Shown here: piece after piece, positions 415-60,267 of the stretch
Numbering within the stretch: position 1 is the first letter of the stretch
Layout of the letters: each line of letters begins with the position of its first letter
Assembly (NCBI RefSeq): GCF_030013205.1
Contig: NZ_CP122648.1
Source of the DNA: Escherichia coli
GTDB lineage: Bacteria; Pseudomonadota; Gammaproteobacteria; Enterobacterales; Enterobacteriaceae
Length of the DNA: 64,000 nt
Strand: one strand, 5' to 3'
The notes under the pieces: model-generated
The model's input: the letters and a program-made list of their open reading frames with translations, nothing else
Database searches by the model: none
What the model was told of the DNA's origin: nothing
Position numbers and translations under genes: made by a program

Positions 415-1428
<1,014 letters not shown>

Positions 1429-1477: not shown

Positions 1478-2150
1478 GTGCACAGAAAACCCCCAGCTAG
1501 GCTGGGGGTTCCGGAAAGCTTTCAGCTTTGAGCCAGTTATTAAAACCCCTTTTGATTTGTTAAAACACCTTGCGGTCTGGCAACTGCAAGTGTCAAACAA
1601 GAAATCAAAAGGGGGTCCCAATGGGGAACGAAAAGAGCTTAGCGCACACCCGATGGAACTGTAAATATCACATAGTTTTTGCGCCAAAATACCGAAGACA
1701 GGTGTTCTACAGAGAGAAGCGTAGAGCAATAGGCAGTATTTTGAGAAAGCTGTGTGAGTGGAAAAGCGTACGGATTCTGGAAGCTGAATGCTGTGCAGAT
1801 CATATCCATATGCTTGTGGAGATCCCGCCCAAAATGAGCGTATCCGGGTTTATGGGATATCTGAAAGGGAAAAGCAGTCTGATGCTTTACGAGCAGTTTG
1901 GTGATTTGAAATTCAAATACAGGAACAGGGAGTTCTGGTGCAGAGGGTACTACGTCGATACAGTGGGTAAGAACACGGCGAAGATACAGGATTACATAAA
2001 GCACCAGCTTGAAGAGGATAAAATGGGAGAGCAGTTATCGATTCCCTATCCGGGCAGCCCGTTTACGGGCCGTAAGTAACGAAGTTGGATGCAAATGTCA
2101 GATCGTGTGCGCCTGTTAGGGCGCGGCTGGTAAGAGAGCCTTATAGGCGC
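1478..2150 (+). mobile_element. IS200-like insertion sequence (IS200/IS605 family); boundaries approximate
   Basis: carries a 152-aa Y1/HUH transposase ORF; perfect hairpin aaacccccagctaggctgggggtt near the left side; sits between two convergent-gene terminators; exact ends not determinable without a reference. Confidence 0.6.
1621..2079 (+). CDS. tnpA: IS200-type transposase TnpA (HUH/Y1 family)
   Basis: 152 aa from internal ATG of track ORF 1570..2079: MGNEKSLAHTRWNCKYHIVFAPKYRR... with HIH motif (ADHIHMLVEIPP); near-identical to IS200 TnpA as I recall it. Confidence 0.9.
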   Translation: MGNEKSLAHTRWNCKYHIVFAPKYRRQVFYREKRRAIGSILRKLCEWKSVRILEAECCADHIHMLVEIPPKMSVSGFMGYLKGKSSLMLYEQFGDLKFKYRNREFWCRGYYVDTVGKNTAKIQDYIKHQLEEDKMGEQLSIPYPGSPFTGRK

Positions 2151-2202: not shown

Positions 2203-3270
2203 TTAATTGGTTGCCGGATATTCCTGAATGGTGACCTGCAGCGTTAACTGCTTATCATCACGCATCACTACAACCGGGATCACCGAGCCAGGGCGAATTT
2301 CCGCCACCTGATCCATCGTCTCCAGAGCAGAGATGGCCGGTTTGTTATCCACCGAAATAATCAAATCGTTGACCTGAATACCCGCATTCGCCGCCGGGCC
2401 GTCAGGTGACACTTCATTAACCACGATCCCTTGCAGTTGATCTATACCACCGCCCTGCGCGTGCAGTGGTGCGATCTCACGTCCGCCGATACCAATGTAG
2501 CCGCGGATCACGCGACCATCGCGGATCAGCTTATCCATAATTTTGGTTGCTAACTGGAAAGGAATCGCAAAGCCGATGCCTTCCGGCGTTTCGCCATCGT
2601 TACTCTTATCAAACGACAGCGTGTTAATGCCCATCAGTTCGCCCAGCGAGTTCACCAGCGCGCCGCCAGAGTTACCGTGGTTAATGGAAGCATCTGTTTG
2701 CAGGAAGTTTTGCCGCCCGGTCGGGTTCAGACCAATTCGACCCGTGGCACTAATAATCCCCTGGGTAATGGTCTGCCCGAGGTTGTATGGGTTACCGATC
2801 GCCAGTACCACGTCACCAATGTGCGGTACGCGACGTGCATTGATTGGAATGGTAGGTAAACCGCCAGTGGCATTAATTTTAAGTACCGCCAGATCGGTTA
2901 GAGAGTCAGATCCCACCAGCAATGCTTCAAATACACGTCCATCCTGTAAGGCGACGATGATCTGATCGGCGTCGTTGATGACGTGTTTATTGGTGATGAT
3001 ATAACCGCGTTGATCCATGATTACACCGGATCCCAGGGTGCGGATCTCAAGCTGGTTGTGAGAGTTGGTGTTCAAACCACGGTTGTAAACGTTAACCACC
3101 GCTGGCGCGGCGCGGCGAACCGCCAGATTATAGCTGGCAGGCGTCTCATCGGTACTGTCAAATTGCGGAGTGGAAAGCGGGTTAAGGCTGCGCAGCGAAG
3201 GCATGGCAACCAGCAGAATAGCGCCGACAATTAATCCAATCGCAACGGAACGTAAGAGCTTCACAAACAT
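2203..3270 (-). CDS. degS: periplasmic serine endoprotease DegS
   Basis: 355 aa, MFVKLLRSVAIGLIVGAILL..., trypsin-like protease plus PDZ; matches E. coli DegS. Confidence 0.96.
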   Translation of the reverse strand: MFVKLLRSVAIGLIVGAILLVAMPSLRSLNPLSTPQFDSTDETPASYNLAVRRAAPAVVNVYNRGLNTNSHNQLEIRTLGSGVIMDQRGYIITNKHVINDADQIIVALQDGRVFEALLVGSDSLTDLAVLKINATGGLPTIPINARRVPHIGDVVLAIGNPYNLGQTITQGIISATGRIGLNPTGRQNFLQTDASINHGNSGGALVNSLGELMGINTLSFDKSNDGETPEGIGFAIPFQLATKIMDKLIRDGRVIRGYIGIGGREIAPLHAQGGGIDQLQGIVVNEVSPDGPAANAGIQVNDLIISVDNKPAISALETMDQVAEIRPGSVIPVVVMRDDKQLTLQVTIQEYPATN

Positions 3271-25403: not shown

Positions 25404-27740
25404 ATGAAGCAAATTCGTCTGCTGGCGCAGTATTATGTTGACCTGATGATGAAGTTAGGTCTGGTGCGCTTCTCAATGTTGCTGGCGCTGGCCCTCGTCG
25501 TTCTTGCCATTGTGGTACAAATGGCGGTAACCATGGTGCTGCATGGTCAGGTCGAAAGCATTGATGTTATTCGTTCTATCTTCTTTGGTTTGCTGATTAC
25601 GCCGTGGGCGGTCTACTTTCTATCGGTGGTCGTCGAGCAACTGGAGGAGTCACGGCAACGTCTGTCACGGCTGGTGCAAAAACTGGAGGAGATGCGCGAG
25701 CGCGATTTGAGCCTCAACGTTCAGTTAAAAGATAATATTGCCCAGCTAAATCAGGAAATCGCCGTTCGTGAAAAAGCGGAAGCAGAACTGCAGGAAACCT
25801 TCGGCCAACTGAAAATTGAAATTAAAGAGCGCGAAGAGACACAAATTCAGCTCGAACAGCAATCCTCATTCTTACGTTCCTTTCTTGATGCTTCACCCGA
25901 CCTGGTTTTTTATCGTAACGAAGATAAAGAGTTTTCCGGCTGTAACCGCGCGATGGAGCTGCTGACCGGAAAAAGCGAAAAACAACTGGTTCACCTGAAA
26001 CCTGCTGATGTTTACTCACCGGAAGCCGCCGCAAAAGTCATTGAAACCGATGAAAAAGTGTTCCGTCATAATGTGTCACTGACCTATGAACAGTGGCTGG
26101 ATTACCCGGACGGGCGCAAAGCCTGTTTTGAAATCCGTAAAGTGCCGTACTACGACCGCGTGGGTAAACGTCACGGTTTGATGGGTTTTGGTCGCGACAT
26201 TACCGAGCGTAAGCGGTATCAGGATGCGCTTGAACGGGCCAGCCGCGACAAAACGACGTTTATCTCCACCATCAGTCACGAATTGCGTACACCGCTGAAT
26301 GGTATCGTCGGCCTGAGCCGCATTCTGCTGGATACCGAACTCACCGCCGAGCAGGAAAAATATCTCAAAACCATCCATGTTTCGGCCGTCACGCTCGGGA
26401 ATATCTTCAACGATATTATCGACATGGATAAGATGGAACGGCGTAAGGTCCAGCTTGATAATCAGCCGGTTGATTTCACCAGCTTCCTTGCCGATCTGGA
26501 AAATCTCTCCGCATTGCAGGCGCAACAAAAAGGATTGCGCTTTAATCTGGAGCCTACGCTGCCATTACCGCATCAGGTCATTACCGACGGGACGCGTTTA
26601 CGGCAGATCCTGTGGAATCTCATCAGTAACGCCGTCAAATTCACCCAGCAAGGCCAGGTTACCGTGCGCGTGCGCTACGATGAAGGCGATATGCTGCATT
26701 TTGAAGTGGAAGACTCTGGTATCGGCATTCCGCAGGATGAGCTGGATAAAATCTTTGCCATGTATTACCAGGTGAAAGACAGTCATGGCGGTAAACCTGC
26801 CACCGGCACCGGTATTGGTCTGGCCGTTTCTCGTCGTCTGGCGAAAAATATGGGCGGCGATATTACGGTTACCAGCGAACAGGGTAAAGGTTCAACCTTT
26901 ACGTTGACGATCCACGCACCGTCGGTGGCTGAAGAGGTCGATGATGCGTTTGATGAAGACGATATGCCTTTACCGGCGCTGAATGTGCTGCTGGTGGAAG
27001 ACATTGAACTGAACGTGATTGTCGCGCGTTCTGTGCTGGAAAAATTAGGTAACAGCGTTGATGTCGCCATGACCGGCAAGGCGGCGCTGGAGATGTTTAA
27101 ACCGGGCGAATACGACCTGGTATTGCTGGATATTCAGTTGCCAGATATGACCGGGCTGGATATCTCTCGTGAACTGACGAAGCGTTATCCGCGCGAGGAT
27201 TTACCGCCGCTGGTGGCCTTAACCGCTAACGTGCTGAAAGACAAGCAAGAGTACCTCAATGCTGGAATGGATGATGTGCTGAGTAAGCCGCTTTCTGTTC
27301 CGGCGCTAACCGCGATGATCAAGAAATTCTGGGATACCCAGGATGATGAGGAGAGTACGGTGACGACAGAAGAGAACAGTAAATCAGAAGCATTGCTCGA
27401 TATTCCCATGCTGGAACAGTATCTCGAACTTGTAGGACCGAAGCTGATCACCGACGGGTTAGCGGTGTTTGAGAAGATGATGCCGGGCTATGTCAGCGTG
27501 CTGGAGTCGAATCTGACGGCGCAGGATAAAAAAGGCATTGTTGAGGAAGGACATAAAATTAAAGGTGCGGCGGGGTCAGTGGGGTTACGCCATCTGCAAC
27601 AGCTGGGTCAGCAAATTCAGTCTCCTGACCTTCCCGCCTGGGAAGATAACGTCGGTGAATGGATTGAAGAGATGAAAGAAGAGTGGCGTCACGACGTAGA
27701 AGTACTGAAAGCGTGGGTGGCAAAAGCCACTAAAAAATGA
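25404..27740 (+). CDS. arcB: aerobic respiration control sensor kinase ArcB
   Basis: 778 aa MKQIRLLAQYYVDLMMKLGLVRF...; transmitter H-box ISHELRTPLN, receiver and HPt domains. Confidence 0.97.
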   Translation: MKQIRLLAQYYVDLMMKLGLVRFSMLLALALVVLAIVVQMAVTMVLHGQVESIDVIRSIFFGLLITPWAVYFLSVVVEQLEESRQRLSRLVQKLEEMRERDLSLNVQLKDNIAQLNQEIAVREKAEAELQETFGQLKIEIKEREETQIQLEQQSSFLRSFLDASPDLVFYRNEDKEFSGCNRAMELLTGKSEKQLVHLKPADVYSPEAAAKVIETDEKVFRHNVSLTYEQWLDYPDGRKACFEIRKVPYYDRVGKRHGLMGFGRDITERKRYQDALERASRDKTTFISTISHELRTPLNGIVGLSRILLDTELTAEQEKYLKTIHVSAVTLGNIFNDIIDMDKMERRKVQLDNQPVDFTSFLADLENLSALQAQQKGLRFNLEPTLPLPHQVITDGTRLRQILWNLISNAVKFTQQGQVTVRVRYDEGDMLHFEVEDSGIGIPQDELDKIFAMYYQVKDSHGGKPATGTGIGLAVSRRLAKNMGGDITVTSEQGKGSTFTLTIHAPSVAEEVDDAFDEDDMPLPALNVLLVEDIELNVIVARSVLEKLGNSVDVAMTGKAALEMFKPGEYDLVLLDIQLPDMTGLDISRELTKRYPREDLPPLVALTANVLKDKQEYLNAGMDDVLSKPLSVPALTAMIKKFWDTQDDEESTVTTEENSKSEALLDIPMLEQYLELVGPKLITDGLAVFEKMMPGYVSVLESNLTAQDKKGIVEEGHKIKGAAGSVGLRHLQQLGQQIQSPDLPAWEDNVGEWIEEMKEEWRHDVEVLKAWVAKATKK

Positions 27741-27853
27741 CCCCGGCTAGACCGGGGTGCGCGAATACTGCGCCAACACCAGGGAAATCTTGGCTGCGCC
27801 GTAAATTATTATGATGAGTTACAAGGGCACAGCACTGTTTTTCAGGCCGCACG
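27733..27853 (-). ncRNA. arcZ: small regulatory RNA ArcZ
   Basis: minus-strand sequence gtgcggcctgaaaaacagtgctgtgccc...ccccggtctagccggggtcatttttt matches ArcZ as I recall it; its terminator overlaps the arcB stop codon. Confidence 0.85.
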
Positions 27854-27969
27854 CAGTTAAGATAGCAAAACTTAAATGATTTGTTACATGAATCAGTTAA
27901 ATGTGTGATGCGTAGCATTTTTATTAAAAAAATTAATGTGTTTCAGTCAATTGCGAAAGGATGATCACA

Positions 27970-28623
27970 ATGAAGAAAATTGGCGTAATTCTGAGCGGAT
28001 GCGGCGTCTATGACGGTTCTGAAATTCATGAAGCGGTGTTGACGTTGTTAGCTATTTCACGCAGCGGTGCGCAGGCGGTCTGCTTTGCACCGGATAAGCA
28101 GCAGGTTGATGTTATCAACCATTTAACGGGCGAAGCGATGACGGAAACGCGCAATGTGCTGATTGAAGCGGCACGAATAACGCGCGGTGAAATCCGTCCT
28201 CTGGCCCAGGCCGATGCCGCTGAACTGGATGCGTTGATTGTGCCGGGGGGGTTTGGCGCGGCGAAGAATTTAAGCAATTTTGCCAGTCTTGGTAGCGAAT
28301 GCACCGTTGACCGTGAATTAAAGGCGCTGGCACAAGCGATGCATCAGGCCGGAAAACCGCTTGGTTTTATGTGTATTGCCCCGGCGATGCTGCCGAAAAT
28401 TTTCGATTTCCCGCTGCGTTTGACCATCGGTACTGATATCGATACCGCAGAAGTGCTGGAAGAGATGGGCGCGGAGCATGTGCCGTGTCCTGTCGATGAT
28501 ATCGTGGTTGATGAAGACAATAAGATTGTCACCACCCCGGCATATATGCTGGCGCAGAACATTGCAGAAGCGGCGAGCGGCATTGATAAGCTGGTTTCCC
28601 GCGTGCTGGTCCTGGCGGAATGA
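27970..28623 (+). CDS. elbB: DJ-1/PfpI-family protein ElbB
   Basis: 217 aa from [23 protein letters not shown]. Confidence 0.93.
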
Positions 28624-49320: not shown

Positions 49321-49435
49321 AATCTCGCGCTAACAACCTGGAATCGAGCCGTCATACTACGGCGCAACGCCCTATAAAGTAAACGATGACCCTTCGGGAA
49401 CTTCAGGGTAAAATGACTATCAAAATGTGAATTGT

Positions 49436-49476
49436 AGCTGACCTGGGACTTGTACCCGGGTCGGTATTTTTTTGCT
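49436..49476 (+). promoter_or_regulatory. greA leader terminator/attenuator (GraL-like)
   Basis: hairpin gacctgggacttgtacccgggtc followed by T7 run about 90 bp upstream of the greA ATG; consistent with the known greA leader RNA. Confidence 0.5.
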
Positions 49477-59991: not shown

Positions 59992-60068
<77 letters not shown>

Positions 60069-60182
60069 CTTTAGTCCTTTTTCAAATATACTGTGAAGAC
60101 TTCGGCCTTCGTAGTGGGATTTGAAAAAATCCTTCTGGAAAGTGCTCCAGACCGCAGTTGCGGTTATAGGGTTCAGTTATAT

Positions 60183-60210
60183 AAAGCCCCGATTTATCGG
60201 GGTTTTTTGT
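60183..60210 (+). terminator. intrinsic terminator/attenuator after metY
   Basis: aaagccccgatttatcggggttttttg. Confidence 0.7.
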
Positions 60211-60267
60211 TATCTGACTACAGAATAACTGGGCTTTAGGCCCTTTTTTTATGTCTTGGGGGTGGGC

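Follow-up and report, generated by a model that had tools for sequence, protein, structure and literature searches.

The minus strand of positions 27852 to 27732 in the analysed window, which is the whole stretch of 64,000 nucleotides of Escherichia coli DNA, carries arcZ, the gene for the small regulatory RNA (sRNA) ArcZ, a gene earlier named sraH/ryhA. The best explanation of the locus, to which we give a probability of about 98%, is a chromosomal arcZ gene whose 121-nt precursor would be cut to a 56-nt trans-acting fragment and which would be tied to ArcAB by feedback, the mechanism being taken from the literature. This is a known E. coli sRNA gene in its textbook context and the same allele as the reference, and nothing contradicts the identification. 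The features of the locus, in window positions, are the following:

25404 to 27740, plus strand: arcB, the oxygen-sensor gene, coding for a sensor histidine kinase of 778 amino acids (open reading frame, Pfam, annotation in matching genomes).
27732 to 27852, minus strand: primary transcript of arcZ, 121 nt, with the +1 G at 27852 and the last U at 27732 (Rfam and K-12 identity).
27732 to 27787, minus strand: predicted processed, active ArcZ, 56 nt, ArcZ nt 66–121 (published length and motif).
27793 to 27833, minus strand: 5' stem of the precursor, in which GCUGUGCC (nt 20–27; 27833 to 27826) pairs with GGCGCAGC (nt 53–60; 27800 to 27793) (Rfam consensus structure).
27769 to 27784, minus strand: conserved core CCCUGGUGUUGGCGCA, nt 69–84, part of the target-pairing region directly 3' of the cleavage site (read directly).
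27759 to 27773, minus strand: internal hairpin GCGC-AGUAUUC-GCGC, nt 80–94 (Rfam and RNAalifold consensus structures).
27732 to 27758, minus strand: Rho-independent terminator, consisting of a stem-loop (27758 to 27740), CA and six U (27737 to 27732) (terminator scan and MFE fold).
27732 to 27740, both strands: overlap of arcZ and arcB, 9 nt, holding two Lys codons and TGA on the plus strand and the last stem base, CA and the U-tract on the minus strand.
27853 to 27910, minus strand: arcZ promoter (hexamers read relative to the annotated +1; blocks conserved across species).
27730 to 27918, minus strand: spurious open reading frame (ORF) of 62 amino acids that spans promoter and RNA (no Pfam match, no annotation, frame unconserved).
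27970 to 28623, plus strand: elbB, divergent from arcZ (K-12 and PGAP annotation).

By scanning the whole window with Rfam 15 (cmscan), we obtained a minus-strand match to the ArcZ family (RF00081) running from 27852 to 27745, which scored 120.8 bits (the gathering score being 66 bits) and had an E-value of 4.1e-27. The match covers model positions 1–106 of 106 and is not truncated, the end of the model lying inside the ArcZ terminator. In the E. coli K-12 MG1655 record, arcZ (b4450, "small regulatory RNA ArcZ") occupies 3350577..3350697 (121 nt), and in an in-register alignment the minus-strand sequence of 27852..27732, GTGCGGCCTGAAAAACAGTGCTGTGCCCTTGTAACTCATCATAATAATTTACGGCGCAGCCAAGATTTCCCTGGTGTTGGCGCAGTATTCGCGCACCCCGGTCTAGCCGGGGTCATTTTTT, is identical to it at 121 of 121 nt. 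An earlier note, made from the letters of this DNA, had assigned the minus strand of 27733–27853 to ArcZ and named an alignment with K-12 arcZ and an Rfam scan as checks. Both uphold the assignment; as to the range, the locus was right and both ends were set 1 nt too high, 27853 being the base that precedes the annotated +1 G and 27732 the final U of the tail.

The agreement with K-12 extends to the surroundings of the gene: arcZ b4450 has the same sequence, length and strand relation to arcB and elbB, the same 9-nt overlap and terminator, and the same promoter elements up to −62. The RNA itself shows no difference, and the one upstream intergenic substitution, at 27915 (−63), is a C on the arcZ strand of the window and a G in K-12; it is the single base that differs in the 117 nt of the arcZ–elbB intergenic region (27853..27969), and the C is shared by other E. 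coli genomes with a 100% match to the window. A few scattered differences from K-12 are found in the arcB and elbB coding sequences (for elbB, 4 mismatches in 654 nt), mtgA comes next after elbB, and ArcB shows the Pfam domains HKR_ArcB_TM, PAS, HisKA, HATPase_c, Response_reg and Hpt. Among complete E. coli genomes, arcZ was found once each in 5416 of 5426 and was at least 99% identical in 5395; a 401-nt query around the gene likewise had a match in 5416 of the 5426, mostly at 99% identity or more. Natural loss-of-function arcZ alleles exist in several Enterobacterales (PMC11331407), and the window might in principle hold an inactive allele comparable to the processing-defective point mutants of Dickeya solani. 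However, the RNA is identical throughout its 121 nt to the functional K-12 allele, which is the form of nearly all E. coli genomes, and the sole nearby difference from K-12, at −63, lies upstream of the conserved promoter blocks, so that we regard inactivity as exceedingly improbable.

A search pattern of 26 nt that contains the conserved core matched at least 120 Enterobacterales genomes. The genera among the matches listed are Escherichia, Citrobacter, Enterobacter, Kluyvera, Yersinia, Rahnella and Serratia, together with Erwinia, Pantoea, Photorhabdus, Xenorhabdus, Proteus, Providencia and Morganella. Aligning 113 loci drawn from the matches listed gave these identities to the window sequence:

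Promoter of arcZ, −40 to 0: 71% (113 loci).
ArcZ nt 1–65: 44% (113 loci).
ArcZ nt 66–68: 98% (113 loci).
ArcZ nt 69–94: 100% (113 loci), a value that is inflated by ascertainment and uninformative, this segment being the search pattern.
ArcZ nt 95–121, the terminator: 85% (113 loci).
Antisense of the arcB codons past the ArcZ 3' end: 56% (113 loci).

Such a regional profile is the one expected of an sRNA in which the 3' fragment would be the working part. The position relative to arcB is equally stable: the ArcB C-terminus is encoded convergently just past ArcZ in 109 of the 109 loci with enough flanking sequence, and in 92 of these 109 the 3' end of ArcZ lies 9–11 nt inside arcB, the stop codon counted. 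At the other loci, mainly in Pantoea, Erwinia and Mixta, the overlap of the two genes is small or absent.

The structure of ArcZ is supported independently of its sequence. Across the 113 loci, the 5' 65 nt are poorly conserved, yet the stem that they form just 5' of the cleavage site is kept through compensatory changes: both sides have changed in 7 of its 8 pairs, and a rough alignment has 76% of the cells paired. In the terminator, 3 of the 8 stem pairs carry compensatory changes and 97% of the cells are paired, GG/CC having become AA/UU in 20–22 species (Photorhabdus, Xenorhabdus, Proteus, Providencia and Morganella). The hairpin of nt 80–94 is invariant at all 113 loci and is uninformative on covariation because it lies inside the search pattern. 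For the three-helix, Rfam-type structure as a whole, 89.6% of the cells form standard pairs, versus 27–47% in a control in which the 3' partners were slid by 1–3 columns. None of 500 column shuffles reached the observed covariation score, although phylogeny alone can exceed a shuffle control; of the two controls, the slid one carries more meaning, and its outcome is clear. RNAalifold, run on a MAFFT alignment, did not recover the 5' stem, owing to the poor alignment of the 5' part, and the pairs of this stem were counted explicitly instead.

ArcZ is known to be cleaved once by RNase E, whose consensus is RN↓WUU (the arrow marks the cut), which yields a stable 56-nt 3' fragment, the active species (PMC11331407). 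The published length and this consensus together would place the cut in the motif GA↓UUU (27789..27785), between A65 (27788) and U66 (27787); the longer sequence GA↓UUUCCCUGGUGUUGGCGCA is present at 27789..27769. The core CCCUGGUGUUGGCGCA that starts three nucleotides further on is highly conserved and is required for this unique cleavage (PMC11331407). Because the RNA is identical to K-12 ArcZ, in which both were shown, it is very likely that Hfq binds this RNA and that RNase E processes it to the 56-nt form here as well, and the terminator region (27732..27758) is expected to be the Hfq-binding 3' end. MicL and the short form of RprA, both Hfq-dependent and matured by RNase E, resemble ArcZ in losing a variable 5' part and retaining a conserved 3' fragment that holds the seed and an Hfq-binding terminator (PMC11331407). 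However, their sequences are unrelated to that of ArcZ, and they belong to other loci and other regulators, which makes the likeness a mechanistic analogy only.

The only terminator-like site that a terminator scan reported in 27500–28100 is on the minus strand, with its stem at 27758..27740. Its stem-loop reads ACCCCGG TCTA GCCGGGGT, then CATTTTTT; the stem has 8 pairs, 6 of them G-C, and is followed by CAUUUUUU. On the plus strand, ArcB ends in ...AKATKK*, with a TGA stop codon at 27738–27740. On the minus strand, the terminator stem closes with a T at 27740; CA follows as the spacer, and the six U (27737..27732) run antisense to the codons of the last two lysines. In K-12, arcZ ends at 3350697 and arcB occupies 3350689..3353025 on the other strand, and 9 nt are therefore common to both genes, as in the window; an overlap of about ten bases is usual (PMC11331407). 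These positions confirm the convergent arrangement of arcB and arcZ described in the earlier note and turn out to fit exactly its remark that the terminator overlaps the arcB stop codon, as TGA shares the last stem base and the spacer. Its further statement that ArcZ transcription reads into the 3' end of arcB holds for 9 nt, that is, two codons and the stop, and no further.

The conserved sequence adjoins arcB in every species examined, and the hairpin could form in the arcB transcript too, both of which would suit a 3' UTR or terminator of arcB without any independent minus-strand RNA. Several lines of evidence stand against this. The T-run after the hairpin exists on the minus strand only, the plus strand continuing after the hairpin with GCGCGAATAC, which has no T-run, and the scan found no terminator-like site on the plus strand of 27500–28100. 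Moreover, the minus strand has a conserved promoter with a −10 element at the right distance; the ArcZ 3' end is unchanged in Pantoea, Erwinia and Mixta, although arcB has its stop codon beyond that end there; and 5'RACE and northern data show the RNA (PMC11331407). We thus see next to no chance that the locus is nothing but an arcB 3' end.

A separate question, with an independent arcZ gene taken as given, is how far arcB transcripts themselves extend. No terminator-like site follows the arcB stop codon on the plus strand, and arcB transcripts may therefore traverse all of arcZ. Tentatively, and with the odds rather against it, such read-through, perhaps as far as elbB, might give arcB a long 3' UTR with complementarity to the whole of ArcZ, which could act as a cis-antisense sponge or as a trigger of degradation. 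If this were true, a joint constraint would act on the arcB stop codon and on the base that follows the terminator stem; across genera, the minus-strand triplet is TCA where it pairs with a TGA stop and TTA where it pairs with a TAA stop. The antisense idea is offered as speculation in a review on ArcZ (PMC11331407), and the new part would be only the extent of the read-through and its continuation into elbB.

Upstream of the RNA, the hexamers were read relative to the annotated +1. A −10 element, TATCTT, is at 27864..27859 (−12..−7), with TG before it at 27867–27866 (−15/−14), and a −35-like GTAACA is at 27887..27882 (−35..−30). Together, the hexamers match the consensus at 8 of 12 positions and are thus sub-consensus; a simple sigma-70 scan reported no promoter at arcZ because this lies below its threshold of 9 matches in 12. 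Over the 113 Enterobacterales loci, near-invariant promoter blocks extend from about −57 to −30 and from −16 to −8, and a TCACA motif at 27908..27904 (−56..−52) falls within the most conserved of them. In Klebsiella pneumoniae, CRP is needed for ArcZ expression, and mutation of TCACA, or truncation of the promoter from −41 upward, lowers the amount of the precursor Pre-ArcZ (PMC11322559). As for ArcA, a ChIP-seq study did not report a site upstream of arcZ (PMC3798270), and a search by eye of −60..−15 did not find the canonical ArcA box (two GTTA-type repeats, 11 bp apart), the spacings of GTTA-type repeats seen there being 12 and 13 bp only.

The promoter and the RNA are both spanned by the ORF at 27730..27918, whose translation is MLRITHLTDSCNKSFKFCYLNCVRPEKQCCALVTHHNNLRRSQDFPGVGAVFAHPGLAGVIF. 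An ATG-initiated frame of 62 codons is thus present, which is what a real small-protein gene, or a dual-function ArcZ that also encodes a peptide, would require. However, the translation has no Pfam family at an E-value of 1 or below, and no CDS is annotated over it in K-12 or in a PGAP record that is 100% identical to the window. Nor is the frame kept in evolution: when the same frame was followed through the invariant core in 107 other species, the median ORF length was 0 amino acids, an ATG-started ORF was absent in 99 of the 107, and the stop positions were scattered between 34 and 223 nt downstream. Evolution of the 5' part of the region proceeds by indels, which would shift the frame. 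In addition, the ATG (27918) is 66 nt upstream of the arcZ start and so outside the ArcZ transcript, and no Shine-Dalgarno-like sequence precedes it (aataaaaATG). A coding role is already largely refuted by these data and deserves hardly any credence; the ORF is a chance open frame, in line with the initial judgement that it is not a protein gene.

With the identity and boundaries of the gene, its terminator and overlap, the covariation, conservation and synteny, and the non-coding nature of the ORF all observed directly, the literature suggests how arcZ would work. A sub-consensus sigma-70 promoter with an extended −10 would start transcription at 27852, which would stop at the intrinsic terminator with a U-tract antisense to the last two arcB codons. 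In the resulting 121-nt precursor, the variable 5' part would be folded into the conserved stem, and Hfq on the 3' end would guide a single RNase E cut at nt 65/66, leaving the stable 56-nt 3' fragment. This fragment would then pair in trans with many mRNAs, raising rpoS translation and lowering flhDC, mutS, tpx, sdaC and the sRNA CyaR. ArcB/ArcA would repress arcZ at low oxygen, and ArcZ in turn would lower arcB mRNA, the two thus forming a mutual negative feedback.

ArcZ is an Hfq-bound RNA for which several hundred interactions are described, among them the activation of rpoS translation and the repression of flhDC, mutS, tpx, sdaC and CyaR (PMC11331407, PMC4152358). It also acts in cis, as a 3'-antisense RNA that reduces the expression of arcB, which results in mutual repression (PMC11331407, PMC4152358). 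For the repression of arcZ by ArcB/ArcA at low oxygen, the relevant passages of the reviews point to Mandin and Gottesman 2010 (PMC11331407, PMC4152358). The published contact between UUUCCCU of ArcZ and GGGGAAA of rpoS (about −104..−98) is present in the K-12 rpoS leader. Duplex predictions with RNAduplex do not discriminate either way: ArcZ nt 66–94 at the published rpoS site gave −16.3 kcal/mol, a value matched by 414 of 1000 shuffles, and over the whole K-12 rpoS leader, where the best-scoring site differed from the published one, 853 of 1000 shuffles were as good, which is again non-discriminating. DsrA and RprA act on the same target region of the rpoS leader by the same anti-antisense activation as ArcZ (PMC4152358); in contrast to these likenesses, they have no sequence relationship with ArcZ, respond to other inducing signals and are not convergent to their own regulator.

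The present result leaves knowledge of ArcZ unchanged, and its value is for annotation only. At this locus, the PGAP-annotated RefSeq E. coli records that we examined contain only arcB and elbB and omit ArcZ, and mechanical ORF tracks therefore show the spurious frame of 62 amino acids; recognising the RNA averts a false protein call. ArcZ also accounts for the strong conservation of this non-coding stretch and of the last arcB codons. As a core regulator of enterobacteria, ArcZ connects oxygen sensing with the RpoS stress response, motility, mutagenesis and virulence.

The two bases that lie 3' of the arcZ terminator stem vary with the arcB stop codon, both in the window (27738-27740) and among the arcZ loci of other Enterobacterales that we compared with it (L003-L122). 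Across these loci, a TGA stop in arcB is accompanied by GGGGUCA in arcZ and a TAA stop by GGGGUUA, the latter combination being found in Yersinia, Photorhabdus, Xenorhabdus, Proteus, and Providencia. In Pantoea, Erwinia, and Mixta, the UCA of arcZ is retained although the arcB stop codon lies beyond the 3' end of ArcZ; the constraint on the bases that follow the stem therefore seems to come from the ArcZ RNA itself.

On the opposite strand, a search of 27741-27969 (+) for a terminator-like site after the arcB stop codon found none, and elbB starts 229 nt downstream of this stop on the same (plus) strand. Transcripts of arcB may read through across the arcZ gene. The spacer between arcZ and elbB differs from that of K-12 only at 27915 (-63 from the arcZ start), where the arcZ strand carries C in the window and G in K-12; C at this position recurs in further E. 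coli genomes with a 100% match. A possible CRP site would have its weak upstream half at position 27915.

The interval between mdh and degS holds an IS200-type element together with the 5' structured RNA of that element, as follows from the order of features:

424..1428, mdh, ending just before the STnc490 match
1488-1611 (+), STnc490 ("Hfq binding RNA"), full-length Rfam match, 146 bits
1570..2079 (+), IS200/IS605-family transposase ORF (NCBIfam NF033573, E 2.6e-43), its 5' end overlapped by the STnc490 match (the two together span 1488-2079)
2203..3270 (-), degS, next after the transposase ORF

Other Rfam matches in the window, all above the gathering score, are features to be expected in this part of the chromosome:

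49351-49472 (+), greA leader, 127.5 bits
56125-56208 (+), tRNA
59992-60065 (+), tRNA
60150-60250 (+), rimP leader, 102 bits

Within the E. coli genome collection, an ArcZ match was absent from 10 of the 5426 complete genomes; one record contained two matches, and one match was plasmid-borne. Among the RefSeq E. coli records listed, those with PGAP annotation show only arcB under the ArcZ match, to which a longer query adds elbB; an arcZ ncRNA feature is present only in the curated K-12 record. The missing arcZ feature in PGAP records is an annotation gap and reflects no biological difference.
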